In this document: one piece after another, positions 8,744 to 54,998 of the stretch
Layout: the number at the start of each line of letters is the position of its first letter
How positions within the stretch are numbered: the stretch's first letter is position 1
Assembly (NCBI GenBank): GCA_037444625.1
Contig: JBBIMA010000018.1
Span: 1-64,000 of the forward strand
Length of the DNA: 64,000 nt
Source: Solibacteraceae bacterium
GTDB lineage: Bacteria; Acidobacteriota; Terriglobia; Bryobacterales; Bryobacteraceae
Reading direction: 5' to 3'
Made by a program: the position numbers and the translations under genes
Notes under the pieces: generated by a model
Told to the model about the DNA's origin: nothing
Databases searched by the model: none
The model's input: only the letters and a program-made list of their open reading frames with translations

Positions 8744-10306
8744 TCAGCCCTTCTGCTGCTCGACTTCGACCGGGCCGCCTTTGCCGGCGGCCGGCTTCGA
8801 GCCGAGCTGCTCGAGCACGGCCGGCAAGCTCAGCCCCAGCGCCTCCAGTTGCTGGAGCAGGCTGAAAACCACCGCCGGGCCGGTGCGCGCCAGGCGCGCC
8901 GCGCCCGTGCCGCCGCTGTCGCCCGTGCCCTGATCAATCACCACCAGCTTGTCAATGTTGCCCATGGGCGCGGCCACCGCGCTGAAGATGCCGGTGGAAG
9001 CTTGCAGAATCGAGGGCAGCTTCTCGAGCACGGTTTGCAGCTTGGCCGCTTCGTTGAACTGCTTCCAGGCTTCCGCCTTGCGCAGGATGGCGGCCGCCTC
9101 GGCCACGCCCTGCGCTTCGATGGCTTTGGCCTGCGCCAGGCCGACGGCTTCGATCTTGGAGGCCTCCGCCTTGCCCTCGGCTTCGATGGCGGCCGCCCGC
9201 CCGATGCCCTCCTTGCGCAGCTTTTCCTGCTCGGCTTCGGCCATGGCGATCAGGGCCGCCCGCCGGCCCTCGGCCTCCAGGATGGCGGCTTGCTTGGCGG
9301 CCTCGGCGCGCACGATGGCCGCTTGCCGCTCGGCGTCGGCCGGCTTGATGACGGTGGCTTCCAGCTCTTTCTGCTTGCGCAGCACCTCCTGTTCCTGAAC
9401 GGAGATCATCTCCTGGGTGCGGGTGCGCTCGATTTTGACCTCCTCGGCCACCACCGCCTGGCGGGCCTGCGCCTCCGAGAGGGGCCCGGCCTGCTTGGCC
9501 CGCGCCTTCTGCGTCTCGACTTCGGCCTGGTATTGCGCCTGGCGGATTTGAAAATCGCGCTCCGCCAGGGCGATCTCGGCTTCGGCCGCGAACTTAGCCC
9601 GCTCGCCTTCTTGCAGCGCCTGGGCGGAGCGGATCTTGGCGTCGCGGGTGGCTTCCGCCTCCCCGATGGTGGCGTCCCGCTTGACCTCGGCCGTGCGCCG
9701 CTTGCCCAGCGCGTCCAGATAACCTTCCTCGTCGCTGATCTCCTGGATGGTGAGCACGTCCACGCCCAGGCCCATCTTTTCCAGGTCCATGGCCGCTTCG
9801 CTGGTCAGCTTCTGGGCGAAGCTCTGCCGGTCGGAGTTGATCTCCTCGACCGTCAGCGTGCCCAGGATCGAGCGCAGGTGGCCCTCCAGCGTCTGGTAGA
9901 TCACCCGGTGCATCTGCTCCTGGTTCATGCCCAGGAAGCGCTCGGCGGCCGCTTGCAGGGAGGCGTCGTCGCTGCGGATCTTCACGTTGGCCACCGCTTT
10001 GACCGAGACCGGCACGCCCTTGAGCGTGTAGGCCCGCTTGATCTCCAGGGGAATGGTGATCACGTTCAGCGAGAGGTAGTCCACCTTCTCCAGCAGGGGG
10101 AATTTCAGCGCCGCCCCGCCCTTCACCATCCGGTAGCCCACCACCCGCCCGTCGGCCAGCCGCCGCTTGCGCCCGCTCAACACGGCCACCGTGTTGGGGG
10201 AAACCTTCAGGTAATTGCGGCTGAACAGCCAGGCCGCGATGAACAGGCCCAGAACGACCAGCAGCACGATGACCGGAAGGAACAACTGCGTGACGTCCTG
10301 CAACAT
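8744..10306 (-). CDS. floT: flotillin (SPFH/band-7 domain, FloT/YuaG-like)
   Basis: 520 aa with an N-terminal TM segment, an SPFH domain, then a long Ala/Glu-rich coiled-coil (AEAEQEKLRKEG, EAEGKAEASKIEA), typical of flotillin. Confidence 0.75.
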   Translation of the reverse strand: MLQDVTQLFLPVIVLLVVLGLFIAAWLFSRNYLKVSPNTVAVLSGRKRRLADGRVVGYRMVKGGAALKFPLLEKVDYLSLNVITIPLEIKRAYTLKGVPVSVKAVANVKIRSDDASLQAAAERFLGMNQEQMHRVIYQTLEGHLRSILGTLTVEEINSDRQSFAQKLTSEAAMDLEKMGLGVDVLTIQEISDEEGYLDALGKRRTAEVKRDATIGEAEATRDAKIRSAQALQEGERAKFAAEAEIALAERDFQIRQAQYQAEVETQKARAKQAGPLSEAQARQAVVAEEVKIERTRTQEMISVQEQEVLRKQKELEATVIKPADAERQAAIVRAEAAKQAAILEAEGRRAALIAMAEAEQEKLRKEGIGRAAAIEAEGKAEASKIEAVGLAQAKAIEAQGVAEAAAILRKAEAWKQFNEAAKLQTVLEKLPSILQASTGIFSAVAAPMGNIDKLVVIDQGTGDSGGTGAARLARTGPAVVFSLLQQLEALGLSLPAVLEQLGSKPAAGKGGPVEVEQQKG

Positions 10307-10330
10307 GAGAACTCCTTTCCGGCGCCCCTC

Positions 10331-10885
10331 TCAGGCGCCGCCCGCTTGCTGACGCACGATCACGGTTTCGCCCAGCACCTGTTCGATGCGGACGATCTCG
10401 TTCTCCGCGATCGCCTCGCCGTCCTGGGAGCGCGCGATCTTGTCCAGCAGCTCTTCGCCCAGCCGGCAGCGCACCTGTCCCACCCCGCCCTTGGGAATGG
10501 CCACCACCACCCGCGCCGGTTGCCCGACCAGGTCGGCCGAGCGCAGCTCGGTGCTGGCTTGCTGGCTCCAGAGGAAGCGCGCAAAGGCGTAAATGATCGA
10601 GGCGAACAGCACCCCGCTGGCGAAGCCCACCGCCGAGGCCGGCGCCGGCGAAGCGCCGTAGTAACTCGCGACCGCCCCGAAGCCCCCGAAGGCCGTCACG
10701 AATACGCTCAGGATGCGGGTGGAAAAGATGCCCGGCCCGCCGTGGTCCAGGTCATGATCCAGCCCGTCGCCCAAGTGCTCGAAGATCTCCCCGAATACCA
10801 GGGAGACCAACAGGAACAGGAAGCCCACCCCGGCGATGCCGAGGAAGATCGTGAAGGCGGAGATCTGCGTCAACCAGCCGGGCAT
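10331..10885 (-). CDS. NfeD-family membrane protein (flotillin partner, YuaF-like)
   Basis: 184 aa with N-terminal TM helices and a C-terminal OB-fold-like soluble domain. It sits immediately upstream of the flotillin gene in the conserved nfeD-floT arrangement. Confidence 0.7.
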   Translation of the reverse strand: MPGWLTQISAFTIFLGIAGVGFLFLLVSLVFGEIFEHLGDGLDHDLDHGGPGIFSTRILSVFVTAFGGFGAVASYYGASPAPASAVGFASGVLFASIIYAFARFLWSQQASTELRSADLVGQPARVVVAIPKGGVGQVRCRLGEELLDKIARSQDGEAIAENEIVRIEQVLGETVIVRQQAGGA

Positions 10886-10994
10886 GGGCCGACCTCAGCA
10901 AGCGCAGTCTAGCCCAGCCCGGCCCGGCAAGTCAAACCGTGCGCCGCCCCCGGGGACTCTCCGGCGAGGCCCGGGCGCCCGGGGGGCGTGCCCT

Positions 10995-11093
10995 TCAGCT
11001 CGACATCTTGCGCTTGCGGCGGCGCATGATCAACAGCACCAGCACACCGCCCGCAGCGATCCACAGAATGGCCGACAACAACGAGTTGTCCAT
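10995..11093 (-). CDS. 32-aa single-pass membrane peptide with polybasic tail
   Basis: Not in the ORF track. ATG is preceded by AAGGAGAGG at -5. Sequence MDNSLLSAILWIAAGGVLVLLIMRRRKRKMSS*, GC3-rich. Confidence 0.45.
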   Translation of the reverse strand: MDNSLLSAILWIAAGGVLVLLIMRRRKRKMSS

Positions 11094-11160
11094 TTATCCT
11101 CTCCTTTCTTCCTCAGTGATTCGCCCTGTACCCTCGGCTCGGCCGCTCATGGGACCCGCC

Positions 11161-12093
11161 TCACATCTGGAACGACTTCATCATCGGGAACAGGTTCTTG
11201 AACAATTGCAGCAAGCCCGGCCCGGCCGCCACCACCAGCATGGCCGGCAGAATGAAAAAGAAGATCGGGAAGACCAGCTTGACGCCCACCTTGGCGGCCC
11301 GCTCTTCGGCCTGCTGGCGCCGGCGCACGCGCATGAAGTCCGAGTGGGCGCGCAGGGAGTCCGCGATGCTGGTGCCGAAGCGGTCGGCCTGAATCAGGGT
11401 GGCCACCAGTTTGCGGATCTCGGGCTCGCCCGTGCGGTCGGCCAGGTTTTTCAGCGCCTCCTGCCGCCGCTTGCCCGCCCGCATCTCCAGGTTCACCAGG
11501 CTCAACTCCTGGCTGATCTCCGGGTGGCTCAGCGCCAGCTCCCGGCTCACGTTCACCATGGCTTGATCCAGCCCCAGGCCCGCTTCCATACAGACGATCA
11601 TCAGATCCAGGGCGTCCGGCAGCGACAAGCGCAGCTTCTCCTGCCGCCGGGCCACCAGGTGATCCAGCGCCATGTTGGGGGCGAAAAAGCCGGCCAGCGC
11701 GGCCGCCACCACCAGCACCGTGCGCAGCACCGGGCTGTCGGTGGCGTAATCGCGAAACAGCAGGGCCAGAATCAGCAGCGCCGCGCACAAGACCACCTTC
11801 AGCCCGTAGTAAATCTTGGGCGCGACCTCCGAGCGGATCCCCGCCGCCATCAGATACCGGCGGGTGACGGAAGTCTCCTGCGGCGAGATGGGAACCTTCT
11901 CGCCGATCTGCTCGACCAGGCGCACCAGCAGCGGCTTTTCGCCCGGCCCGGTCAAAGCGGCCGGCGCCTCGAGCGCCACCGGGCTGCCCAACTGCTCGTA
12001 CAGGCGCCGGGGGCGCACGTAGAGCCGGTAGCCGTAGGCGGTGATGCTGAGGGTCAGCAGCACGAACAGCGCGACGGAAACCAGCAGAGCCAT
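11161..12093 (-). CDS. tadC: Tad pilus inner-membrane platform protein TadC (T2SS-F family)
   Basis: 310 aa with a TM topology and conserved region typical of GspF/TadC. Confidence 0.85.
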   Translation of the reverse strand: MALLVSVALFVLLTLSITAYGYRLYVRPRRLYEQLGSPVALEAPAALTGPGEKPLLVRLVEQIGEKVPISPQETSVTRRYLMAAGIRSEVAPKIYYGLKVVLCAALLILALLFRDYATDSPVLRTVLVVAAALAGFFAPNMALDHLVARRQEKLRLSLPDALDLMIVCMEAGLGLDQAMVNVSRELALSHPEISQELSLVNLEMRAGKRRQEALKNLADRTGEPEIRKLVATLIQADRFGTSIADSLRAHSDFMRVRRRQQAEERAAKVGVKLVFPIFFFILPAMLVVAAGPGLLQLFKNLFPMMKSFQM

Positions 12094-12097
12094 GGCT

Positions 12098-13060
12098 TCA
12101 CACCTTGATGTCCACGATCTTGCGGATGGTCAGGTGCCCCAACAACAGGCCCACGATCGCTCCCGCGATGATGTATTTGCCGTCCGGGTCGGCCGCCATG
12201 GATTGCAGATATCCCGGGGCCACCACCATCAACCCCAGCATCAGCAGCACCGGCATGATCGTCAGCACCGCGCCGGTCACCCGGCCGTGCGCGCTGGCCG
12301 CCCGCACCTGTCCCTTGAGCTGGAACCGCTCCCGGATGATGCGCGCCAGCTTGGTCAGCACCTCGGCCAGGTTGCCGCCCGTCTCCCGTTGCAGCAGCAC
12401 CGCCGAGACGAAGAACTTGACGTCCAGCAAGGGGACCCGCTCGGCCAGGTTCTTCAGCGCCGTGTCAATCGGCAAACCCAGGTTCTGCTCGTTGAAGACC
12501 TTGCGGAACTCGGTGCTCAGCGGCGGCGAGGACTCCCCGGCCAGCATCTCCAGGCTGATGGAAAAGGCGTGGCCGGCGCGCATGGCCCGGGCCAGAAAGT
12601 CCAGCGCCTCGGGGAATTGTTCCTCGAAGGCGGCCAGCCGCAGTTTGCGCTGCCGCAGCACGTACAGATAGGGCAGCGCCGCCCCGGCCAGGGCGGCGGC
12701 GGTGGCGCTCAGCCAGGGGACCATCAACACGCGCAGCCACATCCCGATCAGGCCGCCCAGCAGGCCGGCCAGCATCATCTGCACCAGCAGGCCGCCCGCC
12801 GTCAGGGTCATGCCGGCCTGCTGGATGTGCGCCTCCATCTTGCGCAACAGGTCGAAACGCTCCAGCAGCCGGCCCAGCAGGGGCGCCTTCTCCGGCTCCA
12901 GCAACACCGTGGTGACCACCGTGGCGGCGCGCCCCCCGGCGGTCTCCAGCATGCCCGTGAGTTTCTTCTTCCGCTGCCCCTCCAGGAAGCGGAAGCCCAG
13001 GCCCAGGGTCAGCGCCACCAGGGCGAAAATCAGCAGAAAGGTAATGACCGCGGCCGTCAT
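12098..13060 (-). CDS. tadB: Tad pilus inner-membrane platform protein TadB
   Basis: 320 aa T2SS-F-like, 5 nt upstream of tadC. Confidence 0.85.
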   Translation of the reverse strand: MTAAVITFLLIFALVALTLGLGFRFLEGQRKKKLTGMLETAGGRAATVVTTVLLEPEKAPLLGRLLERFDLLRKMEAHIQQAGMTLTAGGLLVQMMLAGLLGGLIGMWLRVLMVPWLSATAAALAGAALPYLYVLRQRKLRLAAFEEQFPEALDFLARAMRAGHAFSISLEMLAGESSPPLSTEFRKVFNEQNLGLPIDTALKNLAERVPLLDVKFFVSAVLLQRETGGNLAEVLTKLARIIRERFQLKGQVRAASAHGRVTGAVLTIMPVLLMLGLMVVAPGYLQSMAADPDGKYIIAGAIVGLLLGHLTIRKIVDIKV

Positions 13061-13067
13061 GGCTCCC

Positions 13068-14426
13068 CTACCCGATCTCGACTTTGGTCTGGAAAACGGC
13101 CGCCGGCAACTGGATGCCGGCCGCCTTCAGACGTTCGCTGAACTTGGGCCGAATGCCCGTGGGACGGAAACGGCCCAGCACCTTGCCGTCCTCCCGGACC
13201 CCGGTCTTCTCGAACACGAAGATGTCCTGGCCGGTGACCTGATCGCCCTCCATGCCCACGCACTCCATCAAGTGCGTCACCCGGCGGCTGCCGTCGCTGA
13301 AGCGGGCGATCTGCACGAACAGGTCAATGGCCGAACTGATCTGCTGGCGGATGGCGCGCACCCCGATGTTGGAGTTGGCCATGCCCACCATCACCTCCAG
13401 CCGGCTGATGGCGTCCCGGGGCGAGTTGGCGTGGATGGTGGTGAGCGAGCCGTCGTGGCCGGTGTTCATGGCCTGGAGCATGTCCAGGGCCTCTTCGCCG
13501 CGCACCTCGCCCACGATGATGCGGTCCGGCCGCATGCGCAGGGCGTTGATCACCAACTGCCGGATCCGGATCGCGCCCTGGCCCTCGATGTTGGGCGGGC
13601 GGGCCTCCATGCGCGCCACGTGGATCTGCCGCAACTGAAGCTCGGCGGCGTCCTCGATGGTGACGATCCGCTCGTCCTCGGGGATGAAGCCCGAAAGCAC
13701 GTTCAGCAAGGTGGTCTTGCCCGCCCCGGTGCCGCCCGAAATCACGATGTTCAAGCGGGACCGCACACAGGCCTTCAGCACCTCGAGCATCCCCTCGGTC
13801 AGGGTCAGATTCCGCACCAGCTCGGCCGCGGTGATCGGATCCCGCCGGAAGCGCCGGATCGAGAGCAGCGGCCCGTCCACCGCCACCGGCGGGATCACGG
13901 CGTTGACGCGCGAGCCGTCGGGCAGCCGGGCGTCCACCATGGGCGAGGACTCGTCCACCCGCCGCCCCACCCGGGCCACGATCTTCTCGATGATCCGCAG
14001 CAGGTGCTGGTTGTCCTTGAACTCGACCGGCGTGCGCTGTAACTTGCCGTTGCGCTCCACGTACACCAGCCGGGGCGTGGTCACCAGGATGTCCGAGACG
14101 GTCGGATCCTGCAACAGCGGCTCCAGCGGTCCCAGACCGAAGACTTCGTTGAGAACCTCTTCGGTCACCCGCTCCTTCTCGGCCAGGCTCAGCGGAGTGC
14201 GCTCCTCTTCCACCAGCCGCGCCACCGCCGCCCGCACCTCCATGCGGACCCGCTCGCCCGCCAGCGACCCGAGCGCCTCCAGATTGATCCGCTCCAGCAG
14301 CTTGCGATGCAGAGCGAATTTCAGTTCCTGGTACTCGGGCGCCACCGCGGGCGTTTCCATCACCCGGTTGACCCAACCGGCTTCCATCGCCGCCCGGACG
14401 CCCGTCATCCCGCTGTCCACCGCCAT
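13068..14426 (-). CDS. cpaF: Tad pilus secretion ATPase CpaF/TadA
   Basis: Walker [10 protein letters not shown], Asp box, Walker B and His box of VirB11/TadA ATPases ([23 protein letters not shown]). Confidence 0.92.
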
Positions 14427-14462
14427 AGCCCGGCCTCCTTAAAGTCTTCCTTTCATCCCACC

Positions 14463-15638
14463 TCAGAAAAAGATGCCCAGCCTGGACTTGGCCTTTTCGG
14501 CCCGCTCCTCCGGCAGGCCCGCGATCTTGGCCGTCAGACGGCTGAACTGCCGGCCCAGCTCGCTGGCGGCCGGCAACAGATTCCCCTCCGAGTAACTCTC
14601 GTACAACTCCGGATAACTGTTGGGCAGACCGGCGAAGATCTCCAGCCCCAGAACCTTCTCCAGCTCGCCCTGGGTCAAGTCGGGCTGCCGGGGCATGCGG
14701 TTCAAAATCAACTGAAGGCGCTTCTGGCCGTAGCCGAAATCCAACAGATTCTGGGCGATTTGTTTCACCCGGTGCAGCGCCAGCACGTCGAAGGTCGCCA
14801 CCAGAAAGGCTTGATCCAGATCCGCCAGCACCGCCAGCGTCAGCGGCGTCAGGCTCCGCCCCAGGTCCACCACCACCCAGTCGTAGACCGTCCGCGTGAA
14901 GCGCAGCACTTGGCGGAACAGGTCCGGCGCCAGCGGCTCGGCCGTATCGGTCATGCGCGGCGCCGCAATCACCTCCACCTGCGGCTGGCCGTTCGACACC
15001 AGCGCCTTCCAGTAACTGCCGTCCAACCGGTGCAGATTGCGCACCGCGTCCAAAATCGAGTACTCGCTGCTCGCCTTCATCAGGAAGCTCAGCAGCCCGG
15101 TCTCCAGATCCAGGTCCGCCAGCAGCACGTCCTTCGAGGTCTGGCGCTGAAGCTCGACCCCCACGTGACAGGCCACCGTGGTCGCCCCGCAGCCGCCCTT
15201 GGCCGAGAGGAAGCCCAGGATCTTGCCCGGCTCGCGCACCGGCTGGCGCACCCGCGCCCGTTCGCTCGTCAGGCGGATCAGCGCCTTTTCCAGGGCGCCC
15301 TCCAGCGGAGGGTACAGGTACTCGCTGGCCCCCGCCCGGATCGCCGCCAGGATGGTCTCCGGCTCGACCGTGGTGCTCAGAGCGATCAGCATCGGCTGGG
15401 CCAGGGTGGATCGGATCCGGCGCAACGCCTCCTCGAAAGCGGGCCCCACCGCGCTCAGCTCCACCAACACCACGTCCGGACGAATTCGGTCCAGCTCGTC
15501 CAGGAATCGAGCCCAATCCTGGACCGCGGGCTGATCGAAAACGATCCGCGCGGGCGAACCGCGCAGCGAGAGCTGCACCTGGTTCCACAGTTCGCGATGC
15601 GCGACGATCAGCCCGATCTTGATTTCCTGCGCTATCAT
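14463..15638 (-). CDS. cpaE: pilus assembly protein CpaE/TadZ
   Basis: N-terminal receiver-like domain, then a ParA/MinD ATPase domain with deviant Walker A LSAKGGCGATT. Confidence 0.8.
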   Translation of the reverse strand: MIAQEIKIGLIVAHRELWNQVQLSLRGSPARIVFDQPAVQDWARFLDELDRIRPDVVLVELSAVGPAFEEALRRIRSTLAQPMLIALSTTVEPETILAAIRAGASEYLYPPLEGALEKALIRLTSERARVRQPVREPGKILGFLSAKGGCGATTVACHVGVELQRQTSKDVLLADLDLETGLLSFLMKASSEYSILDAVRNLHRLDGSYWKALVSNGQPQVEVIAAPRMTDTAEPLAPDLFRQVLRFTRTVYDWVVVDLGRSLTPLTLAVLADLDQAFLVATFDVLALHRVKQIAQNLLDFGYGQKRLQLILNRMPRQPDLTQGELEKVLGLEIFAGLPNSYPELYESYSEGNLLPAASELGRQFSRLTAKIAGLPEERAEKAKSRLGIFF

Positions 15639-15678
15639 TGCCGCCCCTGGGATCGAAAGCCTTGCGCTCAGCTCCTCC

Positions 15679-17193
15679 TCATGGATTGGGCGCCCCTTCG
15701 CTCTTGGGGCGCTCCGGACTGGGCGCCGGCGCCGGTGTGATCTGGATGGTCGGCGCAGCGGCCGCCGGCGCCGCTTTGGGCTCGGCCAGTTGCTCGACGG
15801 GCACCTTCTCCCGCACCGGCTTCACCGGCACCGGACCGGTCGCCTCCATCCCGGGCGTTCGCGGGGCGGCCGTGGGGGCCCCCTTCATGAAGGGCACCGG
15901 CATGCTCACCCCGGGCAGCGGCTGCCCCGGCGGGATGGGCCGCACCAGCTCAGGCGTCACCGCCACCAGCAGCTCGGTGTTGCTCTTGGTCAACGAGCGC
16001 GATTGAAACAGCTTGCCCAGCACCGGGATGTCTCCGATGCCCGGAATCTTGCTGAAGCTCTCGATCACCCGGTTGTCCAGCAGCCCGGCGATCAGGAAGC
16101 TCTGCCCGGATTCCAGCTCGATTTCGGTCTGCACCCGGCGGGTCGAGATGGCCGGAATGGTGAAACCCTGGAGCACGACCGCGTTGCTGTAATCCAGCGA
16201 GCTGACCTCGGGCGTCACCCTCAGCCGAATCGTCCCCCGGGGCGTGACCGTGGGCAGGAAGTTGATCCGCACGCCGAACTCGCGCCACTGGATGGTGATC
16301 GCGCCCGCCCCGGCTATGCCCGACTGCACCACCGGGATGGGGAACTCGCCGCCCGCCAGGAAACTGGCCCACTGCCCGTTCATGGCCAGCAGGTTCGGCT
16401 CGGCCAGCATCTCCAGCAGCCGCTTGCCTTGCAAAGCCCGGATGGTCGCCGCCAGGTCCAGGTCCGGGCGGAACAAAAAGATATTGAGCGCATCGGTCAG
16501 ACTGAAGACCGCCCCCTGCCCGGTGGCAAAGTCCGCCCGCGGCGCCTGGAACTGCTGGGTGGTGATCGAGCCTTGCGTGTTCAAGGCGCCGGTGGAGAAA
16601 ATGTTGGCCCCCAGCTCCTGCGAGGCCTGCCGGTCCACATTGGCGAAGCGCACCTTCAGCAGGATCTGCTGCTCGGCCGGGGGCGTCTTGACGTAGAGCA
16701 GGTTGACCGTCTTGCCCAGCGTCTCGGCGATCTGCACCGCCCGCTCGGCCGCGATGCGGTCGTTTACCGTGCCGCGCAGAAAGACGCTCTCTCCTTCGAG
16801 GGAAATGCTCACCTCCTGGCCCGGCAGCTCCTTCTCCAATTCCTGCCGCACCGCCTCCAGGCGCGCCGGACTGGGGCGCACCTTCAGATCGAACAACAGG
16901 CGGGCGCCGCCCTGCTGCCAGATGATGAGACTGGTTTCGCCCGGGGCCAGCCCGTTGACCAGCACTTCCTTGGGCGTGATGGCGACCGCCTCGGCGATCT
17001 TGCCGTCGGCCACCGAGACGCGCTGGATCACCGTCGGGCTTTCCACCACCAGGGACTTACCCGCCGTGACGAACAGGTCGCGCGCCCCGCCCGGCGGCTG
17101 CTGGGCCAGCACCACCGCTCGCGTTCCCAGGAAGGCGCCGATCAACAGGATCCAGATCGTCGAGAACAGCAACAACGCGCGGCGCGGCTTCAC
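15679..17193 (-). CDS. cpaC: Tad pilus secretin CpaC/RcpA
   Basis: GTG start with a signal peptide. BON/N-domains and a C-terminal secretin domain (GIPVLGKLFQS). Start overlaps cpaB stop as GTGA. Confidence 0.85.
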   Translation of the reverse strand: MKPRRALLLFSTIWILLIGAFLGTRAVVLAQQPPGGARDLFVTAGKSLVVESPTVIQRVSVADGKIAEAVAITPKEVLVNGLAPGETSLIIWQQGGARLLFDLKVRPSPARLEAVRQELEKELPGQEVSISLEGESVFLRGTVNDRIAAERAVQIAETLGKTVNLLYVKTPPAEQQILLKVRFANVDRQASQELGANIFSTGALNTQGSITTQQFQAPRADFATGQGAVFSLTDALNIFLFRPDLDLAATIRALQGKRLLEMLAEPNLLAMNGQWASFLAGGEFPIPVVQSGIAGAGAITIQWREFGVRINFLPTVTPRGTIRLRVTPEVSSLDYSNAVVLQGFTIPAISTRRVQTEIELESGQSFLIAGLLDNRVIESFSKIPGIGDIPVLGKLFQSRSLTKSNTELLVAVTPELVRPIPPGQPLPGVSMPVPFMKGAPTAAPRTPGMEATGPVPVKPVREKVPVEQLAEPKAAPAAAAPTIQITPAPAPSPERPKSEGAPNP

Positions 17194-18080
17194 GGTTTGA
17201 CCTCCGGATTGGGCCCGAACTTGGTCTCCGCGCGCTTGGCGCCGTGCAGCACCTCGACCACCAGCGGCGGCGGCTCCGGTTTGGGCTCCGCCTTGGGCGG
17301 GGCTTTGGGCGCCGGGGCGGCGGCCCGCCGCGGCGGCGCCGAGGGCGCCGAGATCGGGTTCACGAACGGCTGGCCGGTGAAAAGGTTGGCCAGCGCCGTG
17401 CCTTTGGTCTTGGCCACCTCGGTGTCCAGCGGGTTGCGCAACACCAACTGGATCCGGGTCTCGTTGCCCGCCAGCGTCAGAATCTCAGCCTGCTCCGGCG
17501 TCACCAGCAGGTTCACCACCGGCACCGAGACCGGCTTGCCTTCGGCGTCCTTCTGGATGTTCTGCCCCGCGGAAAGCACCTCGATGTTCTGGAGCACCGT
17601 TCGGGCCAGCGTGCCCAGGTTGGCCGGTGCGCCCGGCGGGTTGCCCGAGATCAACACATCCACCCTCATGCCGGGAACCACGAAGCCGCCCACGCCCACC
17701 ACCTCGTTCACCCGCACGGCCACGGCGCGCATCCCGGGCGGGATGGTGGCCGCCAGGCCTGCGCCGGCGCCCTTGGGCGCCAGCCGGGTCTCCAGAATCG
17801 GTTCGTCCTGATAAATGTTCGAGACCACGCCCCGCCCCACGATGTCTTCACGCTTCAAGACCGCGTTGGGAGGCACGGGGCCGGCCCATTCCACCTGGCG
17901 CAAATCGGGGTCGCGGATCAGAGTGCCTACCGGCAGGTTGCGCGCCGCCACCATCAGCAGCGTCGTGGCCGGCTTGGCCTGCTGGCCCAGACGGCTGGCC
18001 GTGAGGCGGTACACCAGGAAGCTGGCCACGCCCGATACCACCAGCGCGAAGACCAGCACCGACACAAATCGCTTATTCAT
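17190..18080 (-). CDS. cpaB: Flp pilus assembly protein CpaB/RcpC
   Basis: N-terminal TM anchor, SAF/RcpC domain, Pro/Ala-rich C-terminus. Confidence 0.8.
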   Translation of the reverse strand: MNKRFVSVLVFALVVSGVASFLVYRLTASRLGQQAKPATTLLMVAARNLPVGTLIRDPDLRQVEWAGPVPPNAVLKREDIVGRGVVSNIYQDEPILETRLAPKGAGAGLAATIPPGMRAVAVRVNEVVGVGGFVVPGMRVDVLISGNPPGAPANLGTLARTVLQNIEVLSAGQNIQKDAEGKPVSVPVVNLLVTPEQAEILTLAGNETRIQLVLRNPLDTEVAKTKGTALANLFTGQPFVNPISAPSAPPRRAAAPAPKAPPKAEPKPEPPPLVVEVLHGAKRAETKFGPNPEVKP

Positions 18081-18130
18081 TTGTGGTCCTCCACCCTGCC
18101 GGACAGATTACCGCAACCCAGTCGGAAAGA

Positions 18131-18157
18131 AAAGGGGCATGCGGGGGCATGCCCCCC
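18131..18157 (-). terminator. intrinsic terminator/attenuator directly after flp
   Basis: On the minus strand the sequence GGGGCATGC-CCCC-GCATGCCCC forms a 9-bp GC stem followed by TTTTCTTTCC. It lies between the flp stop (18169) and the cpaB start (18080). Confidence 0.5.
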
Positions 18158-18168
18158 TGAGATAACGA

Positions 18169-18366
18169 CTAGCTTCCGCCGCTACCCGACGCCGACGCAG
18201 CGGCCGCGCCGAGCTGGCTGTTCGCCACATTCCAGATCGTTTGCACGCTGCCGCCGGCGCCGATGAACAGGGCCGCGGAAGCCAGGGCCACGAAAGCCAG
18301 CAGCAAGGTGTACTCGACCAGGTCCTGGCCTTGCTCGTCCCGCAGGAAATTCTTCAGAAGTCTCAT
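18169..18366 (-). CDS. flp: Flp-family type IVb prepilin
   Basis: 65 aa, MRLLKNFLRDEQGQDLVEYTLLLAFVALASAALF. It has the Flp leader, the G/xxxxEY processing motif and a hydrophobic helix, and ends in a Ser/Gly/Ala-rich tail GAAAASASGSGGS. Confidence 0.85.
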   Translation of the reverse strand: MRLLKNFLRDEQGQDLVEYTLLLAFVALASAALFIGAGGSVQTIWNVANSQLGAAAASASGSGGS

Positions 18367-18370
18367 GCTG

Positions 18371-20083
18371 TCACTCTCCTCGCAAGAAGTTGGGCGAACC
18401 ATGGAGCGCCGCGGCCGCGAGACCCCGTTGCGGCTCGCCCGCTCCATGGACCGCCTGGGTGGCTCCGCGTGATCGCGCGATCACGCCGGCTTCGTCCGGC
18501 TCTCCGGCCGAAGCCTGAAACCGGGGGCCATCCGCCCCCTCCCTTCGAAAAACGATGGCGATGCCGTCGTCATACACCAGCCGCCATCGCCGGGATTCCT
18601 TGAGCAGACTGGCGAGGGCCGAATCGGCCCGCAGGACCGCCGTCCGGGGACCGTAGCGGTCCAGGCTCTCGCGCCAGTCGTAACGGCCCCGCACCAGATC
18701 CAATAGCTCGAGGCCCAGCCGGGCGCCGTAGAAATCGCTGCGCCCGTCAATGAATACCCGGGTGCGGGGATAAAGCCGGTAGATCAGGTAATCGCCCCAC
18801 TCGTCGTCCGAGAAAACGTCGCCGGCCAGCGCCTCCGGCCCCAGGGCCTGGATGGCGGCCGCCGGATAGCGCTTGGGATCGTAGTCGGCGCGGAATTTCT
18901 CGGGCGCGCCGGGCAGCCACAGCAGCGCACCCACGCCCGCCAGGGCGGCGGCGCTCAGCCAGGGCACGCGGGCGGCGCGGTCCACCTCGCCCAGCTCGGC
19001 GGAAAAGCCTCTCAGCGAGGCGGCCGCCCGGCGCAGCCACGCCGGGACGCCGGCCTCAGCCAGCCCGTCGAGGGCCTCGCGCAGGCTCCGGGCGATGATC
19101 GGGGCGGCCAGGAAGGCGAAAATCGGGATATTTCTGGCCGCGAGCAGCGCCAGGTGTCCCCAACCAAGGAGCAGGATTGCGTGCGTATACCGGCGCCGGC
19201 AGAGGCACCAGAAAGCCGCCACGGCGCCCGCCGCCAACAATGCTTCGAAGTAAATGGCCGCCGGATGATGGAAACTCAGCGACAGAAATTCGTTGATGTT
19301 ATTGAAATGGTAAGAGTCCGTGAGATACCGCAGGATGTGGGCGTGCAGGCGCCAGGTGTAAGGGTTCAGAAAGCTGGCGAGCAGGCAGCCGGCGGCGCAC
19401 AGCAGGTAGGGCCGGACTCGCAGGAGTGAGGCGCGGCGCTCGGCCGCCTCCGGACTCAACAGCCAGGCGGCCAGCTCGCCAGCGGCATAGGCGCCGATCA
19501 AAAGGATGCCCACGAAAAAGCCGCCGTGCAGGTTGGTCCACAGGATAGTGAGCGGCGGCAGCCACCAGAGCAGCCGGCGGCGGCCTTCCCGGACCTGCTC
19601 CAACAGGCCGTAAAAAATGATCACGAGCAGCAGGGTGAACAGATGGGGCCGCGCCAGCCAGTGGATCGAGGAGGCGGCCAGCGCCAGGAAGGTCACCCCG
19701 ATCGCCAGCAGCACGTCCCCGCTCTGGGCCCGCGCCAGGCGGTACAGGAGCGCTCCCCCGAGCGAGATTACGGCCAGGCTGGCCAGCACGACCGCCGCCA
19801 TGCCCCAGTGCAGATGCAGCCAGCCGAAGACCACGTCCCAAAGCCACTCCCAGGCGTACCAGGGCTGGCCCGCCTTGGTGAAGGAGAACAGGTCGCGCTC
19901 GGGCACGCGCCCGTGGGCCAGGATCCACTCGCCGGTGCGCAGGTGCCAGCCGGTGTCCCCGTCGCTCAGCATGGAGCGGGCCCCATCCAGGCGCAGGAAT
20001 AGAAGCAGCGCCGGCATCAGGAAGGCCGCGTCGGCCAAGGAAGGCATCCAGCCTATGCGCCGGCTTGGTCCAGGCTGCTTCAT
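18371..20083 (-). CDS. polytopic membrane protein, putative GT-C (ArnT/PMT-like) glycosyltransferase
   Basis: About 570 aa with more than 10 TM helices. An acidic first periplasmic loop (SDGDTGWHLRTGEW, PERD) precedes a ~180-aa C-terminal soluble domain. It lies 5 nt upstream of flp; start chosen at MKQPGPS. The Gly-rich N-terminal extension in the ORF track overlaps pilZ and is probably not translated. Confidence 0.45.
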   Translation of the reverse strand: MKQPGPSRRIGWMPSLADAAFLMPALLLFLRLDGARSMLSDGDTGWHLRTGEWILAHGRVPERDLFSFTKAGQPWYAWEWLWDVVFGWLHLHWGMAAVVLASLAVISLGGALLYRLARAQSGDVLLAIGVTFLALAASSIHWLARPHLFTLLLVIIFYGLLEQVREGRRRLLWWLPPLTILWTNLHGGFFVGILLIGAYAAGELAAWLLSPEAAERRASLLRVRPYLLCAAGCLLASFLNPYTWRLHAHILRYLTDSYHFNNINEFLSLSFHHPAAIYFEALLAAGAVAAFWCLCRRRYTHAILLLGWGHLALLAARNIPIFAFLAAPIIARSLREALDGLAEAGVPAWLRRAAASLRGFSAELGEVDRAARVPWLSAAALAGVGALLWLPGAPEKFRADYDPKRYPAAAIQALGPEALAGDVFSDDEWGDYLIYRLYPRTRVFIDGRSDFYGARLGLELLDLVRGRYDWRESLDRYGPRTAVLRADSALASLLKESRRWRLVYDDGIAIVFRREGADGPRFQASAGEPDEAGVIARSRGATQAVHGAGEPQRGLAAAALHGSPNFLRGE

Positions 20084-20088
20084 CGCAG

Positions 20089-20502
20089 TCACATCAACAG
20101 GTGGCGAAACGCCTCCAGGTTCTCCACCACGCCCATCCGCGGGCTTTCCGAGTCCCGGAATTTCATCTGGTGAACCCGAAAAGCCACCGCCGCCCGACCC
20201 TCCGCCGGCCGCGCCACCCGCACCGCGGTGGCTTGGCAGTACAGGCATTTGCGGCCGAAGGAGTGATTGGCGGGCAATTCCACCTCCAGATCCAAAAGCT
20301 GGCCGATCTTAGGCAAGCGGCCCGCCTCGCGCGAATTCCAAAGGACGAGCATTCCTCCCCGGCTGATATTGGCGGTCAGCCCCACCAATACGCGCGAATT
20401 TCCCCTCAACGTGGGCAAATGACAAGGAAGCTGCACCTCCAGCCGCGGGTCGAGACGCCGGTCCATCATCCTTGAGTATTGCCGTTCCCCGGTCTGATTC
20501 AA
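20089..20502 (-). CDS. PilZ domain protein (c-di-GMP binding)
   Basis: RxxxR (RRLDPRLEV) and DxSxGG-like (ANISRGGM) PilZ motifs; first gene of the minus-strand Tad cluster. Confidence 0.7.
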   Translation of the reverse strand: MNQTGERQYSRMMDRRLDPRLEVQLPCHLPTLRGNSRVLVGLTANISRGGMLVLWNSREAGRLPKIGQLLDLEVELPANHSFGRKCLYCQATAVRVARPAEGRAAVAFRVHQMKFRDSESPRMGVVENLEAFRHLLM

Positions 20503-20743: not shown

Positions 20744-20855
20744 TTTTGTTTCACTTTCCCGTCCTCTGGTGCTATGCTATTCCCTACCGGAGTATCCGCC
20801 GCCTACGGCGTCGGCCCGCGGGCGCCTGAGGGGCGGAGCAAGGAAGGTGACGACA

Positions 20856-21635
20856 ATGGCGCGCGTGGCCCTATTCACCGACGAACCCGTGCTGGCTACC
20901 GGCTTGACGGCCACTCTGGCGGCCGCCCCCGGCCTCGAGTTGGTCTCCGTCGCCAGCGATCCCGCACGGCTGCCCGGCTGCCTCGAGGAGGTCCGGCCCG
21001 ACATCCTGGTGATGGATCTCATCCCCGAAGTCAGCTTCGGCCTGCTCAGCCAACTGCACCGCCAGGCGCCCGAGTGCCGGCTGGTGCTTTGGACCCGCAC
21101 CATCTCGATGGAGCTGGCCTACCAGGTGATGGACCTGGGCGTGCGCGGCATCCTGAAAAAGACCCTGCCCCCGGAACTGGTGGTCAAATGCCTGACCAAG
21201 GTGGCCGAAGGCGAGCTCTGGTTCGACAAGAGCCTCACCGCCAGCTTCCTCACCGCGCGCACGGTCTCGCTGACCAACCGCGAGAGCCAACTGGTGACGC
21301 TGCTGGCGCAGGGCCTCAAGAACAAGGAAATCGCCACCGCCTTGTCCATCTCGGAAGGCACCGTGAAGGTCTATCTCTCGCGCTTGTTCCAGAAGGTGGG
21401 GGTGAAAGACCGCTTCGAGCTGGCTCTTTACGGGCTGCGCAATCTCCAGAACCTGCAAAACCTCGGGGCCGGGCCGGTGGAATTCCTGCCCGCCGGAGAG
21501 CCGGGCCGTGCCCCGGCACGCTTCCAGCCCTTGCGCTCGCTGGTGGTCGAACGCCCCGAGGCGGCCTTCCGCCGGCCCATGCTGCCCGCCAAAGGGGCCG
21601 GCCCCCGCGTCGCTTTTGGAAACCAGAGAGCCTGA
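20856..21635 (+). CDS. LuxR/FixJ (NarL-type) response regulator
   Basis: ATG preceded by AGGAAGG. Receiver domain (LVMDL) plus a C-terminal LuxR HTH (NKEIATALSISEGTVKVYLSRLFQKVGV). Confidence 0.8.
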   Translation: MARVALFTDEPVLATGLTATLAAAPGLELVSVASDPARLPGCLEEVRPDILVMDLIPEVSFGLLSQLHRQAPECRLVLWTRTISMELAYQVMDLGVRGILKKTLPPELVVKCLTKVAEGELWFDKSLTASFLTARTVSLTNRESQLVTLLAQGLKNKEIATALSISEGTVKVYLSRLFQKVGVKDRFELALYGLRNLQNLQNLGAGPVEFLPAGEPGRAPARFQPLRSLVVERPEAAFRRPMLPAKGAGPRVAFGNQRA

Positions 21636-21678: not shown

Positions 21679-23379
21679 ATGCTGGCGTGGTGGGCCATCG
21701 TCTCGGGTCTTACTGCGGCAAGACCGCGCCGCGTGGAAATCCCCAATTTCTTGCGCTGCGCCGCCCCGCCCCGCAGCCGCCGTTGGCCCTGCTTCGCCGC
21801 TTCGGCCGGCCTGCACCTGGCGGCGGTCCTCCTGCTGCCGGCGCTGAGCGACTGGCTGGCGGCTACCCAGCCGGCGGTCTGGGTGCGGCGCTACCGCTTG
21901 CTGCCCTCGGTCGAGATTCGCGTGCCCGAGCGCCTCTATCTGGCTTCGACCGGACGCTCGCCGGCCCGCAAGAGCCGCCCGAAGGCCGCGCCGCCCCGCC
22001 GCAACAGCCGGGCCGAAACGCCCGGACGGTCGAATAGGACCGACGGCACGCAGGCGGGCAACCGGCGGCCCAGGCGCTTTCAACTCCCGCGTTTGCGGGC
22101 GCGCCAGACCGACCAAACGCTGTTACAGCCCGATTTCCCCCCGGATCTTCCCGTGCTGAGCCGCATCAGCCTGCCCCAGGTCTTTTTCTGGGCCCCGCCC
22201 CCCTCGCCGGTCCTGCCCATCCGCAAGCCCTTCGTGATACCGGGCAGCGCCGAGCCGTTCGCCCAACTGCCCCGCCTTGACGCCCCGCCTCAACTGGCGC
22301 CGCCCAACTGGGAGACGCTGGCCAGGGAGCTGGCCGCCGCCTCGGCCCTGCAAGGCCGCCCGGACTCGCTCCTGCTGCCCGCCATCAGCCTGCCCATTCA
22401 GATAGCCGACTCGGCCGTTCCCCAGCCGCAGACGCACATCTCGGTGGACCGTTCGGTGGGCGATCCTCTGAGCGTGCTGGCGCTGAGCCCACGCGTACGA
22501 CCGCTGCGCGAGGAGTTGATCGTGCCGCCCGGCAACCAATTGGCCGAGCTGCTCAGCGCACCGGCCGGGTTAGGGCCGGGGGAAGGAGAAGGGGGCCGGC
22601 AGGGCGAAGGCGGAAAGGCGGGTGAGGGCGCCTCATCCAGCCCCGAGGCGGGCGCAGCCAGGACGGCGGCCGGCCGCGGGCCTGCCGCGGGCCAAACAGC
22701 CGCCGGTACGCAGGCGCAACGCGCCGCCGGCGCGACGGCAGCCTCCGCCGACACCCCACGGCAGCCTGGCGCCGATTCCCGGCCGGTGCCGGTTCGAGCC
22801 GATGGTGATGGCAGGACACCCTCCGCGGCGGGGTCGCCCACGGGGACTCAACTCGCCGCTGCCGGCCAGGCCCCCACGCCAGGAGCGGACCCGGCGGGTT
22901 CAGCCCTGCGCGTCGAACACCCCCCGGGCGGCGTCTTCGATGTCATCGTCGTGCAGCCCGGGCCGATCGAGGGCTTCCCCGAGTCCAGCGGGGCGCTCTC
23001 GGGCCGGCCGGTTTATTCGGTCTTCCTCAAGGTGGGCGCGCCGAGGGAATGGATTCTCCAGTATTGCGTCCCCGGAGAGGATCAGAGCGTGGTGGTCTCC
23101 GGCGGGGTCGTCCGGCTGGCGAATCCCTCGCCCGTCACCGCACCGTACCCTCGGCTCACCTACTTGCCCCCGTTGCGGCCGCGCCCCGGCGCCTACCTGA
23201 TGGTTCACGGCTTCCTGGATGCCGGGGGGCGATTCCAGCGGCTCCAAGTGCTGCGCGCGGCCGACCGCGAGGAAGGCGCAACGGTGCTGCCCGTATTGGA
23301 TCGCTGGGAATTCCGTCCGGCGATGCGCGACGGCCGCCCGGTGGAAGTGGAGATCCTGCTGGCTATCCCTCGCGGCTGA
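21679..23379 (+). CDS. TonB-C-like energy-transducer family protein (N-terminal TM, long Pro/Ala/Gly-rich linker)
   Basis: TM segment AASAGLHLAAVLLLPAL, a Pro-rich spacer, and a C-terminal TonB_C-like fold (VVSGGVVRLANPSP, LPVLDRWEFRPAMRDGRPVEVEILLAIP). Confidence 0.5.
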   Translation: MLAWWAIVSGLTAARPRRVEIPNFLRCAAPPRSRRWPCFAASAGLHLAAVLLLPALSDWLAATQPAVWVRRYRLLPSVEIRVPERLYLASTGRSPARKSRPKAAPPRRNSRAETPGRSNRTDGTQAGNRRPRRFQLPRLRARQTDQTLLQPDFPPDLPVLSRISLPQVFFWAPPPSPVLPIRKPFVIPGSAEPFAQLPRLDAPPQLAPPNWETLARELAAASALQGRPDSLLLPAISLPIQIADSAVPQPQTHISVDRSVGDPLSVLALSPRVRPLREELIVPPGNQLAELLSAPAGLGPGEGEGGRQGEGGKAGEGASSSPEAGAARTAAGRGPAAGQTAAGTQAQRAAGATAASADTPRQPGADSRPVPVRADGDGRTPSAAGSPTGTQLAAAGQAPTPGADPAGSALRVEHPPGGVFDVIVVQPGPIEGFPESSGALSGRPVYSVFLKVGAPREWILQYCVPGEDQSVVVSGGVVRLANPSPVTAPYPRLTYLPPLRPRPGAYLMVHGFLDAGGRFQRLQVLRAADREEGATVLPVLDRWEFRPAMRDGRPVEVEILLAIPRG

Positions 23380-35468: not shown

Positions 35469-37286
35469 ATGCCGGGTCGCGGGGCCGCACACTATAATCG
35501 CAGGGTGCAACTCTCCGCTCTGGACTGGCTGGTCATCGGCTTGTATTTCCTGCTCAGCCTGGCGATCGGGCTGTATTACAAGGCCCGCGCCGGCCGCAGC
35601 ACGCAGGAGTTTTTCCTCTCCGGGCGCGACGTGCCCTGGTGGCTGGCGGGGACCTCGATGGTCGCCACCACCTTCGCCGCCGACACGCCTCTGGCGGTCA
35701 CCGGGCTGGTGGCCAAGGGCGGCATCGCGGGCAACTGGCTGTGGTGGAACTTCGTGGCGGGCGGCATGCTGACGGTGTTTTTCTACGCCCGGCTCTGGCG
35801 GCGGGCGGGCGTAATGACCGACGTCGAGTTCGCCGAACTGCGCTACGCCGGAGCCCCGGCCGCCTTCCTGCGGGGCTTCCGCGCCCTGTATCTGGGCCTG
35901 CCCATCAACTGCATCGTGCTGGGCTGGGTGAACCTGGCCATGGTCAAGATCCTCGAGCACGTGCTGGGCGTCTCCAAGATTCAGGCCCTGGGCCTGACGC
36001 TGGGCATGATCGCCCTGACCTCGCTGATCTCGACGCTTTCCGGCCTGTGGGGCGTGCTGGTGACGGATTTCTTCCAGTTCGCCATTGCCATGGGCATGGT
36101 CATCGTGCTGGCGGTTTTCGCGGTCGGGGCGGTTGGGGGAATGGACAGCCTGCTGGTGCGGCTGGAGGCGGTGGACCGCTTGCGCGCCGCAGCCTCCGGC
36201 GGGCAGGGCTCCCTGCTGAGTTTCGTGCCGGACCTGCACTCCGCCTGGATGCCCATGCTGACCTTCCTGGTCTATATCTCGCTGAACTGGTGGGCGACCT
36301 GGTATCCCGGGGCCGAGCCCGGCGGCGGCGGGTTCGTGGCCCAGCGCATGTTCTCGGCCAAGGATGAGAAGCATTCCCTGCTGGCCACCTTGTGGTTCCA
36401 GATCGCGCACTACGCCCTGCGTCCCTGGCCCTGGATCCTGACCGCGCTGGCGGCGCTGGTGTTGTATCCCGGCCTGGCCGATCCCGAGGTGGGCTACTTG
36501 CAAGTGATGGTCCACCACCTGCCTGCCTCACTCCGGGGGCTGATGGTGGCGGCCTTCGCGGCCGCCTTCATGTCCACCATCGCGACTCAGTTGAACTGGG
36601 GCGCCAGCTACCTGGTGAACGATTTTTATCGCCGCTTCGTGCGGCCGGGCGCCGGCGAGCGCCACTACGTGCTGGCCTCCCGGCTGGCGACCCTCCTTCT
36701 GACCTTGGTCTCGGCGGTGGTGACCTTCTACATGACCTCGATCGCGGCGGCCTGGAAGCTGCTGATCGTCACCGGCGCGGGCACCGGCGGCGTCCTGCTG
36801 CTGCGCTGGTACTGGTGGCGAATCAACGCCTGGAGCGAGGTTTCCTCGATGATCGCGGCCTTCGCGGTCTCCCTGACCATGCAGCTTGCCTGGGGCCTGG
36901 ACAGCGATGATCCCCTGGGCTTCGCCTGGATCATGATCGTCACCATCGCCCTCACCACGGCGGTTTGGCTGACGGTGACGCTGCTGACCCGGCCGGAGCC
37001 GGTGGAAACGCTGCTCGCCTTCTATCGCCGGGTGCGGCCCTCCGGCCCCGGTTGGGCGCCGATCGCCCGGCTGGCGTCGGAACTGCCTCGGCCGGCGGAC
37101 GGCCGGCGGAACCTGGCCGACGCCCTGGCCGGCTGCGTGCTGATTTACGGGGCGCTGTTCGGGGTGGGCAAGCTCTTGTTGAAACAATCCGGGACCGGGC
37201 TGTTGATGCTGGCCTGCGCCCTGGCGGCCGGGGCCTTCATCTACCGCGACCTCAGCCGGCGAGGCTGGCATGCGGCGGCGGATTAG
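35469..37286 (+). CDS. sodium:solute symporter (SSF) family transporter
   Basis: 13-14 TM helices. Alternative GTG start at 35505 sits right before TM1, with a TATAAT-like box at ~35492. The upstream 33804..35468 part of the listed 1160-aa ORF is antisense to acnA and spurious. Confidence 0.8.
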   Translation: MPGRGAAHYNRRVQLSALDWLVIGLYFLLSLAIGLYYKARAGRSTQEFFLSGRDVPWWLAGTSMVATTFAADTPLAVTGLVAKGGIAGNWLWWNFVAGGMLTVFFYARLWRRAGVMTDVEFAELRYAGAPAAFLRGFRALYLGLPINCIVLGWVNLAMVKILEHVLGVSKIQALGLTLGMIALTSLISTLSGLWGVLVTDFFQFAIAMGMVIVLAVFAVGAVGGMDSLLVRLEAVDRLRAAASGGQGSLLSFVPDLHSAWMPMLTFLVYISLNWWATWYPGAEPGGGGFVAQRMFSAKDEKHSLLATLWFQIAHYALRPWPWILTALAALVLYPGLADPEVGYLQVMVHHLPASLRGLMVAAFAAAFMSTIATQLNWGASYLVNDFYRRFVRPGAGERHYVLASRLATLLLTLVSAVVTFYMTSIAAAWKLLIVTGAGTGGVLLLRWYWWRINAWSEVSSMIAAFAVSLTMQLAWGLDSDDPLGFAWIMIVTIALTTAVWLTVTLLTRPEPVETLLAFYRRVRPSGPGWAPIARLASELPRPADGRRNLADALAGCVLIYGALFGVGKLLLKQSGTGLLMLACALAAGAFIYRDLSRRGWHAAAD

Positions 37287-40038: not shown

Positions 40039-40114
40039 GCCAGCCGCTCCCGGGGCGAATTTCCTGTTTTCATTTCCCGCCGCCGGGAGCATACTATTTA
40101 CCGGGAGGTGCCCG

Positions 40115-50014: not shown

Positions 50015-50079
50015 AGAGCGCCCTCCGGAGCACTCTATTTGGTGGGTTCCGGCGGCGGTTGATCTCAGCCCAAAGCGAC

Positions 50080-54980: not shown

Positions 54981-54998
54981 GGCGGGCGCCGCGCCCGC

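Follow-up and report, generated by a model that had tools for sequence, protein, structure and literature searches.

The window examined here is the whole of a 64-kb stretch of 68% G+C from a Solibacteraceae bacterium (assembly GCA_037444625.1, contig JBBIMA010000018.1). It carries a Tad pilus locus in which the pilin gene flp is directly preceded by a gene for a polytopic membrane protein. We favor, with modest confidence, the reading that this protein is a dedicated O-glycosyltransferase of Flp and a part of the Tad pilus system. The evidence consists of a fold of the glycosyltransferase C (GT-C) superfamily, conserved residues placed on the periplasmic side, adjacency to flp, and a C-terminal serine of the pilin that is maintained by selection. 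On these grounds we infer that the protein would be catalytic, with Flp as its acceptor, an O-linkage, and a lipid-linked sugar as donor. A preliminary description of this DNA had proposed a pilin glycosyltransferase abutting an unusual Flp pilin, and that interpretation is supported in every part that could be tested in silico.

The arrangement of the GT-C gene and flp suggests that the two are expressed together. Both genes lie on the minus strand, and reading that strand confirmed a polytopic protein encoded at 18371..20083 and adjoining the pilin. The GT-C stop codon (18371–18373) and the flp start codon (ATG at 18366) are separated by 4 nucleotides (nt), which corrects the 5 nt given earlier. 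The flp Shine-Dalgarno sequence, AGGAGAG, sits within the final codons of the GT-C gene, and flp translation is probably coupled to that gene. Upstream, the 3′ end of a pilZ gene lies 5 nt before the GT-C start codon (ATG at 20083). Downstream, a 12-bp G+C-rich hairpin begins 10 nt past the flp stop codon (fold of 18085–18172 on the minus strand: −39.7 kcal/mol, z −2.4); since a simple consensus terminator scan did not list this hairpin, we only infer that it acts as a terminator. The Tad locus runs in the order pilZ, GT-C, flp, rcpC, secretin, tadZ, tadA, tadB, tadC (Table 1), and in this complete Tad locus the first three genes resemble a transcription unit for the pilin. Neither a prepilin peptidase gene (Peptidase_A24/TadV) nor recognizable TadE/F pseudopilin genes were found in the Tad locus (10331–20502) or elsewhere in the window; in L208, L209, and L210, which are more distant relatives, an A24 peptidase gene comes directly after flp or the GT-C gene.

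The association with flp recurs across related genomes. From a scan of one genome per species that yielded at least 593 confirmed relatives, we took the best 80, all of them from Bryobacterales, Solibacteraceae, or Terriglobia metagenome-assembled genomes except for one labeled Gammaproteobacteria. Of these, 78 loci continue past the GT-C gene, and 73 of them have one to five flp genes directly downstream on the same strand; in these 73 the first Flp motif starts 0–241 nt past the end of the GT-C protein match. Two related loci on megabase contigs (L001 and L002) repeat the complete gene order of the window from pilZ to tadC, with flp overlapping the GT-C gene by 4 nt and a second flp sometimes present. 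Nor is the link limited to close relatives: a clade at ~38% identity carries the GT-C gene, flp, and then a prepilin peptidase gene. Another, at 39% identity, has a GerE regulator gene, the GT-C gene, a prepilin peptidase gene, rcpC, the secretin gene, tadZ, and tadA.

Beyond these Tad-linked clades, the family extends into quite different surroundings. Members at 29–31% identity, from Anaerolineae and elsewhere, have no adjoining flp and sit among GT87, PMT_2, and DUF2079 genes, a GT2 gene encoding 234 amino acids (aa), and unannotated polytopic genes of ~500 aa without a Pfam match (L084, L085, L086, L211, and L212). Because close members stand beside flp and distant ones in glycosyltransferase arrays, we view the proteins as a broad GT-C family of which one large branch is now part of the Tad locus. 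The clustering of distant members with GT2, GT87, PMT_2, and DUF2079 genes also fits the use of lipid-linked sugar donors. The five arrays themselves look like uncharacterized envelope-glycan gene clusters, and in L086 a Flp_Fap gene and rcpC lie 6.6 kb downstream. We also considered that the enzyme arrived with the Tad system from archaea as a relative of AglB; this idea is unsupported, the Anaerolineae members lying in GT-C arrays unrelated to pili.

The GT-C gene is real and conserved. A word-indexed search returned more than 3200 homologues, all annotated "hypothetical protein" and belonging to Bryobacteraceae and other Acidobacteriota, and an exhaustive search gave 31,614 cluster representatives with E ≤ 1e-3, a number that falls to 6,488 with E ≤ 1e-30. 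The NCBI call for an identical protein (P0001) begins at Met13 and gives 558 aa, which leaves an uncertainty of 12 codons in the start. Neither Pfam nor NCBIfam has a model that matches the protein. With E allowed up to 10, Pfam returned nothing relevant for 10 distant family members or for all 41 members of the family alignment, and STT3, PMT, PMT_2, and Wzy_C in particular matched neither the GT-C protein nor the 41 homologues. Sequence searches of the Protein Data Bank (phmmer and two family-profile searches) retrieved no glycosyltransferase and no oligosaccharyltransferase (OST), and when hhalign aligned the family profile with neighboring proteins in L084 (PMT_2, GT87, and unannotated polytopic ones), the probabilities stayed below 1%.

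Structure prediction, by comparison, gives a consistent picture. An AlphaFold2 model built on 41 homologues (predicted local distance difference test, pLDDT, 84.1; predicted template modeling score, pTM, 0.84) is disordered only at residues 520–570, a tail that is also unconserved. The topology predicted from the helices of this model, hydropathy, and the positive-inside rule has 11 transmembrane (TM) helices, with the N-terminus inside and the C-terminus outside. It agrees with the preliminary description, which had counted 10 or more helices and a C-terminal periplasmic domain; in the model that domain is an alpha/beta domain of ~125 residues (about 392–515). Structural comparison ranked human STT3B first (score 18.4, 436 residues aligned), followed by A. 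fulgidus AglB (16.8), DPY19 (15.2), and ArnT and PglB (14.6 each). Scores from 14.2 down to 9.5 belong to ALG12, Pmt4, AftA, Pmt2, ALG3, PIG-M, AftD, ALG9, AftB, PimE, and others, and 19 GT-C structures rank ahead of the first unrelated match. All 23 of the 23 Foldseek matches at E < 0.1 are chains of OST, AftA, DPY19, AglB, PglB, ArnT, or Pmt4; transporters, whose confident assignment the preliminary description had named as the contrary outcome, appear at noise level. Also at noise is the O-antigen ligase WaaL (7tpg_B; E 1.2, probability 0.07), which served in this search as a stand-in for the TfpO/PglL class. For the C-terminal domain alone the best match is the minimal AglB-S2 domain, with DPY19 and AftA nearly as good. 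At the level of its predicted fold, the protein belongs to the GT-C superfamily. Among the relatives first suggested, the GT-C affiliation stands, the fold being closer to that of the N-oligosaccharyltransferases than to those of ArnT or PMT; a Wzy_C or PglL type does not.

Conserved residues gather on the periplasmic side of this predicted topology. Across 115 representatives, the most distant at 29% identity, conservation reaches 90% or more at 33 positions. Periplasmic loops and the C-terminal domain together contain 27 of these, another five mark the periplasmic ends of helices, and one stands where TM1 begins on the cytoplasmic side; the cytoplasmic loops hold none. These positions include D41, D64, E79, H141, R145, H147, H186, and R317. 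The acidic first periplasmic loop recognized earlier is borne out, with DGD (41–43) about ten residues past TM1 and ERD (62–64) further along; D43 in this loop is also conserved. Further conserved segments are the loop H141-W-L-A-R-P-H147, N184-L-H186, and D-E-W-G-D-Y (427–432), which is followed by a helix and stands at the start of the C-terminal domain. Family members that have nothing to do with pili keep the same polar and charged residues. As mapped onto the model, the pattern is that of an enzyme with its active site on the periplasmic membrane surface, as in GT-C enzymes, and the clustering of conserved residues at that surface argues against a purely structural role.

The candidate acceptor is a short pilin with an unusual tail. 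Its leader is MRLLKNFLRDEQG, and its mature part of 52 aa starts with QDLVEYTLLL and ends in the uncharged tail AAAASASGSGGS. The cleavage region reads EQG/QDLVEYTLLLAFVALASAAL, in which the leader ends in Gly and a G/xxxxEY motif and a hydrophobic helix follow. Although the match to Pfam Flp_Fap is below threshold (E 0.039, 14.2 bits against a cut-off of 32.2), we identify the 65-aa product as an Flp prepilin because of the G/xxxxEY motif and the Tad context. We compared 110–111 unique mature Flps encoded beside a GT-C gene ("linked" Flps) with 122 unique control Flps of the ATAIEYGLIA type from a metagenome pattern scan, none of which has motifs of the GT-C family in its flank. The preliminary description had pointed out an unusual tail, and the tails of the linked set do differ statistically from those of ordinary Flp pilins. 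Linked Flps have a modal mature length of 47 aa compared with a median of 40 aa in controls, ~7 residues longer, and 86–87% of them end in Ser (a further 4% in Thr), compared with 7% of controls, among which Lys is the terminal residue in 43%.

Within the linked set, the last residue behaves differently from those before it. The tail after a conserved Ile/Leu-Trp spans 12–23 residues, and the last eight residues are nearly uncharged (37% Ala, 25% Ser, 9% Thr, 8% Asn, 7% Gly). The last six residues occur as 84 different strings. Entropy falls to 0.88 bit at the final position, from 1.7–3.0 bit across the nine before it. Thus, the tail drifts freely while the terminal Ser is kept by selection, and this within-clade pattern is independent of the control set. 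The rule holds for the Bryobacterales clade and not for every Tad-linked member.

These observations suggest how the system may work. Transcription of pilZ, the GT-C gene, and flp would yield one short transcript ending at the hairpin. Type IV prepilins keep the N-terminal helix in the inner membrane bilayer and the C-terminus outside. The Flp prepilin would accordingly enter the inner membrane so that the bilayer holds its hydrophobic N-terminal helix and the last ~20 residues, the uncharged Ala/Ser/Thr/Gly tail, stay on the periplasmic face. In the Caulobacter Tad pilus structure the pilin's C-terminal end lies on the filament surface (PMC10710030); given this and the outward prepilin C-terminus, the tail would be presented where the putative active site of the GT-C protein lies. 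There, ahead of pilus assembly, the conserved DGD loop and the His/Arg-rich loops at the periplasmic membrane surface could move sugar off a polyprenyl-phosphate-linked donor and onto hydroxyl groups in the tail. The likeliest acceptor would be the nearly invariant C-terminal Ser, and the modified pilin would then be polymerized by TadA/B/C and exported via the secretin.

Several observations weigh against this reading. Sequence and profile methods tie the family to no known glycosyltransferase, so that its link to GT-C enzymes is structural. The control Flps come from other phyla, and phylogeny therefore confounds the contrast in terminal Ser. About 13% of linked Flps end in a residue other than Ser, and the Flp of L208 (2335–2520), whose GT-C protein is 38% identical to the query, ends in VLSAAAV, so not every Tad-linked member requires a terminal Ser. 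Among the five loci without a downstream flp, three have rcpC next with no flp between. In the more distant L209, too, the GT-C gene is followed by a prepilin peptidase gene without an intervening flp. Since some Tad loci have the GT-C gene with no flp next to it, the gene is tied to the Tad locus as much as to flp. Genes for donor synthesis (a GT2 polyprenyl-phosphate sugar synthase, DprE1/E2) and for a flippase or GtrA-like protein were found nowhere in the window. Finally, the only Tad pilus solved by cryo-electron microscopy, that of Caulobacter, shows no glycan (PMC10710030).

Part of this evidence bears on an active GT-C enzyme whose acceptor is something other than Flp, namely a co-regulated envelope molecule such as a lipid, an exopolysaccharide or adhesin glycan, or one of the other Tad components (for example the secretin, RcpC, or a pseudopilin). 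This alternative, unlikely on balance, would draw on the identical fold evidence, on the Tad-linked members without flp next to them, and on the 29–31% identity members whose GT-C/GT2 arrays lack flp, as expected for envelope glycan synthesis. Adhesion and pilus production might then be switched on together, perhaps by cyclic di-GMP (c-di-GMP) through PilZ: a canonical PilZ gene lies directly upstream, and PilZ is typical of c-di-GMP-controlled polysaccharide systems (BcsA, Alg44). However, the GT-C gene keeps a tight, conserved place directly 5′ of flp, in the pilin transcript and not among polysaccharide-synthesis genes, of which the locus and the window contain none, and the extended pilin tail with its selected terminal Ser is specific to the same clade. 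A loss of catalysis is improbable to a greater degree. The protein would then serve Flp as a membrane chaperone, docking platform, or assembly factor, like non-enzymatic accessory proteins of type IVa pilins, and both the adjacency to flp, with probable translational coupling, and the lack of donor pathway genes in the window would agree with such a role. Yet the strongest conservation falls on polar and charged periplasmic residues rather than on lipid-facing helices, and these residues are also kept where no pilus is involved.

Nearly as improbable is a divergent N-oligosaccharyltransferase of the PglB/AglB type, which would take a preassembled glycan off a polyprenyl-diphosphate carrier and pass it en bloc to an Asn of Flp. 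STT3, AglB, and PglB (GT66) are nearest in fold: STT3B, AglB, and yeast or human OST match the structure best, the C-terminal domain is closest to the minimal AglB-S2 domain, and loop 1 holds a DXD-type D41-G-D43. Furthermore, W-G-D-Y and a helix open the C-terminal domain where OSTs carry WWDYG and a helix, with a DK/MI motif in the same domain (PMC3703281). About a third of linked Flp tails contain N-x-S/T (41/111, 37%; for example ANTSAS). However, the mature Flp of the window contains no such sequon, which only 37% of linked Flps have, and for these two reasons we rank N-glycosylation low; a conserved acceptor sequon, as GT66 enzymes use, is missing. The GT-C protein also has no sequence-level relationship to GT66 and falls outside that family as sequence defines it: Pfam STT3 does not match even at E 10, a true WWDYG is absent, DK/MI and a second DXD are not identifiable, and 11 TM helices are predicted rather than 13. 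In addition, DPY19 and AftA match the C-terminal domain almost equally well. Among the other GT-C enzymes, ArnT, PMT, and DPY19 use polyprenyl-monophosphate sugars; the GT-C protein has no PMT_2 or PMT Pfam match, and hhalign against a neighboring PMT_2 protein gave no signal.

A dedicated Flp glycosyltransferase would have its closest precedents in type IVa pili. TfpW of P. aeruginosa group IV (Pa5196, PA7) is a GT-C enzyme encoded beside pilA that O-arabinosylates the pilin (bioRxiv 10.1101/2020.04.19.049825). The likeness is that of a GT-C gene directly beside the major pilin gene, and TfpW modifies Ser/Thr residues of its neighboring pilin by O-glycosylation. The differences are several: tfpW lies downstream of pilA whereas the GT-C gene lies upstream of flp; TfpW ends in a tetratricopeptide repeat (TPR) domain whereas the protein here has an OST-like alpha/beta domain and no TPR; and TfpW serves a type IVa pilus with a globular pilin whereas the present system is a Tad (type IVc) pilus with a helical pilin of 52 aa. 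Furthermore, the arabinosyltransferase TfpW depends on a dedicated D-arabinofuranose (D-Araf) cluster (DprE1/E2), which is missing from the window. Domain architecture and gene context thus set the GT-C protein apart from TfpW. TMTC proteins carry a C-terminal TPR as TfpW does, and so does the family representative P0190, unlike the window protein; P0190, of 917 aa with a C-terminal TPR block, recalls in its architecture TfpW and the TMTC/PMT-clan protein O-glycosyltransferases.

The second precedent concerns the acceptor. TfpO and PglL belong to the Wzy_C/WaaL class, a different class of protein, and the GT-C protein has neither a Wzy_C domain nor a WaaL-like fold. What it shares with them is the logic of an enzyme reserved for the pilin, with the two genes side by side. 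In P. aeruginosa group I, TfpO (PilO) attaches an O-antigen unit to the C-terminal Ser of its own pilin (bioRxiv 10.1101/2020.04.19.049825), and the near-invariant C-terminal Ser of linked Flps matches this acceptor as a functional analogy only. The resemblance to TfpO and PglL lies in possible enzyme action, not ancestry. By analogy, the GT-C protein most likely works in the manner of TfpW, with an acceptor logic like that of TfpO.

For Flp pilins themselves, the precedent is limited to A. actinomycetemcomitans, in whose tad locus no GT-C gene is known. Its Flp1 is likewise a Flp pilin reported to be glycosylated, with a mass of ~5.1 raised to 6.2–6.5 kDa (PMC6182317, citing Inoue 2000); the literature consulted names no responsible enzyme. 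Full-text literature searches turned up neither a glycosyltransferase dedicated to Flp or encoded in a tad locus nor any account of this GT-C family, which agrees with the earlier suggestion that an Flp glycosylation module would be new for Tad pili. What is new here is thus probably a pilin-adjacent GT-C protein from an unannotated family that is attached to the Tad/Flp pilus, its precedents being known in type IVa systems. More tentatively, we entertain a third, independently recruited class of pilin glycosyltransferase: a sequence-orphan GT-C enzyme, OST-like in its DXD loop and AglB-like C-terminal domain, that would recognize a free C-terminal Ser and glycosylate the type IVc pili of Bryobacterales. 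If so, a helical, domain-less Tad pilin would gain its surface chemistry from sugars rather than protein, and the N-oligosaccharyltransferases would have in this family a candidate O-glycosylating relative.

Few bacterial adhesion organelles are as widespread as Tad/Flp pili, whose pilins are bare helices of 40–60 residues. A dedicated enzyme, if confirmed, would offer the first genetic handle on Flp glycosylation and would mean that glycosyltransferases encoded next to pilins arose not only for type IVa but also for type IVc pili. It would also bring a testable function to part of a very large membrane family that neither Pfam nor NCBIfam covers with a model. Glycoengineering could make use of an enzyme that tags a short peptide tipped with a C-terminal Ser. 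Bryobacterales are a dominant group of soil bacteria, and the reading suggests surface attachment of abundant soil Acidobacteriota via sugar-coated pili.

Table 1. Coordinates of the pilin unit, the remaining Tad genes, and adjoining elements in the window
Feature	Position	Strand	Details
GT-C membrane protein gene	18371..20083	−	570 aa; ATG 20083, TGA 18373–18371
flp, Flp/Tad prepilin	18169..18366	−	65 aa; ATG 18366; translation, G/xxxxEY motif, Tad context
PilZ-domain protein, 137 aa	20089..20502	−	Pfam PilZ E 1.3e-4, 22.7 bits (cut-off 22.5)
rcpC/cpaB	17190..18080	−	Pfam RcpC 4e-28, SAF
rcpA/cpaC secretin	15679..17193	−	Pfam Secretin 7e-42, T2SS-T3SS_pil_N, BON
tadZ/cpaE ParA-like ATPase	14463..15638	−	Pfam AAA_31, CbiA
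tadA/cpaF secretion ATPase	13068..14426	−	Pfam T2SSE 1e-62
tadB and tadC platform proteins	11161..13126	−	Pfam T2SSF both; open frames 12098–13126 and 11161–12129
Response regulator with GerE/LuxR output domain, divergent	20769..21635	+	Pfam GerE 2e-18, Response_reg
Terminator-like element	18123..18158	−	Hairpin 18131–18158, then UUUUCUUU at 18123–18130; RNA folding

Other genes around the locus are partly conserved with it. As the first gene of the pilZ, GT-C, flp unit, pilZ keeps its position in L001 and L002, and its product carries RxxxR (RRLDPR) and N-x-S-x-x-G (NISRGG), both c-di-GMP-binding motifs. Together, these features suggest that c-di-GMP may control how pilin is produced or modified, or else the Tad motor. 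The GerE response regulator gene also adjoins the locus in L001, L002, and L209. Next to it is a gene for an unannotated protein of ~550–580 aa (window 21679–23379, plus strand; L001 4757–6496; L002 4904–6547), which is conserved at this place in the window, L001, and L002 and, in the window copy, has only a weak match to TonB_C. Directly downstream of tadC on the minus strand lie an NfeD-like gene and an SPFH/Band 7 gene (8744–10894).

Elsewhere in the window, a second Tad locus had been suspected at 50–55 kb from the sizes of open reading frames (ORFs). Pfam rejected it, assigning two recA genes, a VWA protein gene, a sigma-54 activator gene, and mnmE. The two recA genes are tandem and full-length (48977–51231, minus strand), 78% identical over 326 residues, with Pfam RecA at ~1e-135 each, and a bacterial DNA-binding (HU-like) gene (48448–49128) comes after the pair. 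A cluster of rpmH, rnpA, a YidD-like ORF, yidC, a Jag-like ORF, and mnmE spans 53634–58102 on the minus strand. Clusters of the rpmH/rnpA/yidC/mnmE type are usually close to the replication origin. No dnaA was seen beside the cluster here, the adjacent plus-strand gene encoding a TPR/CarboxypepD_reg protein, and cumulative GC skew has its minimum at ~58–60 kb, at the rpmH–mnmE cluster. An HNH endonuclease gene (40016–40474, plus strand) overlaps the end of a 943-aa ORF without a Pfam match (37207–40038, plus strand), and sulfatase and GH28 genes lie downstream of it.

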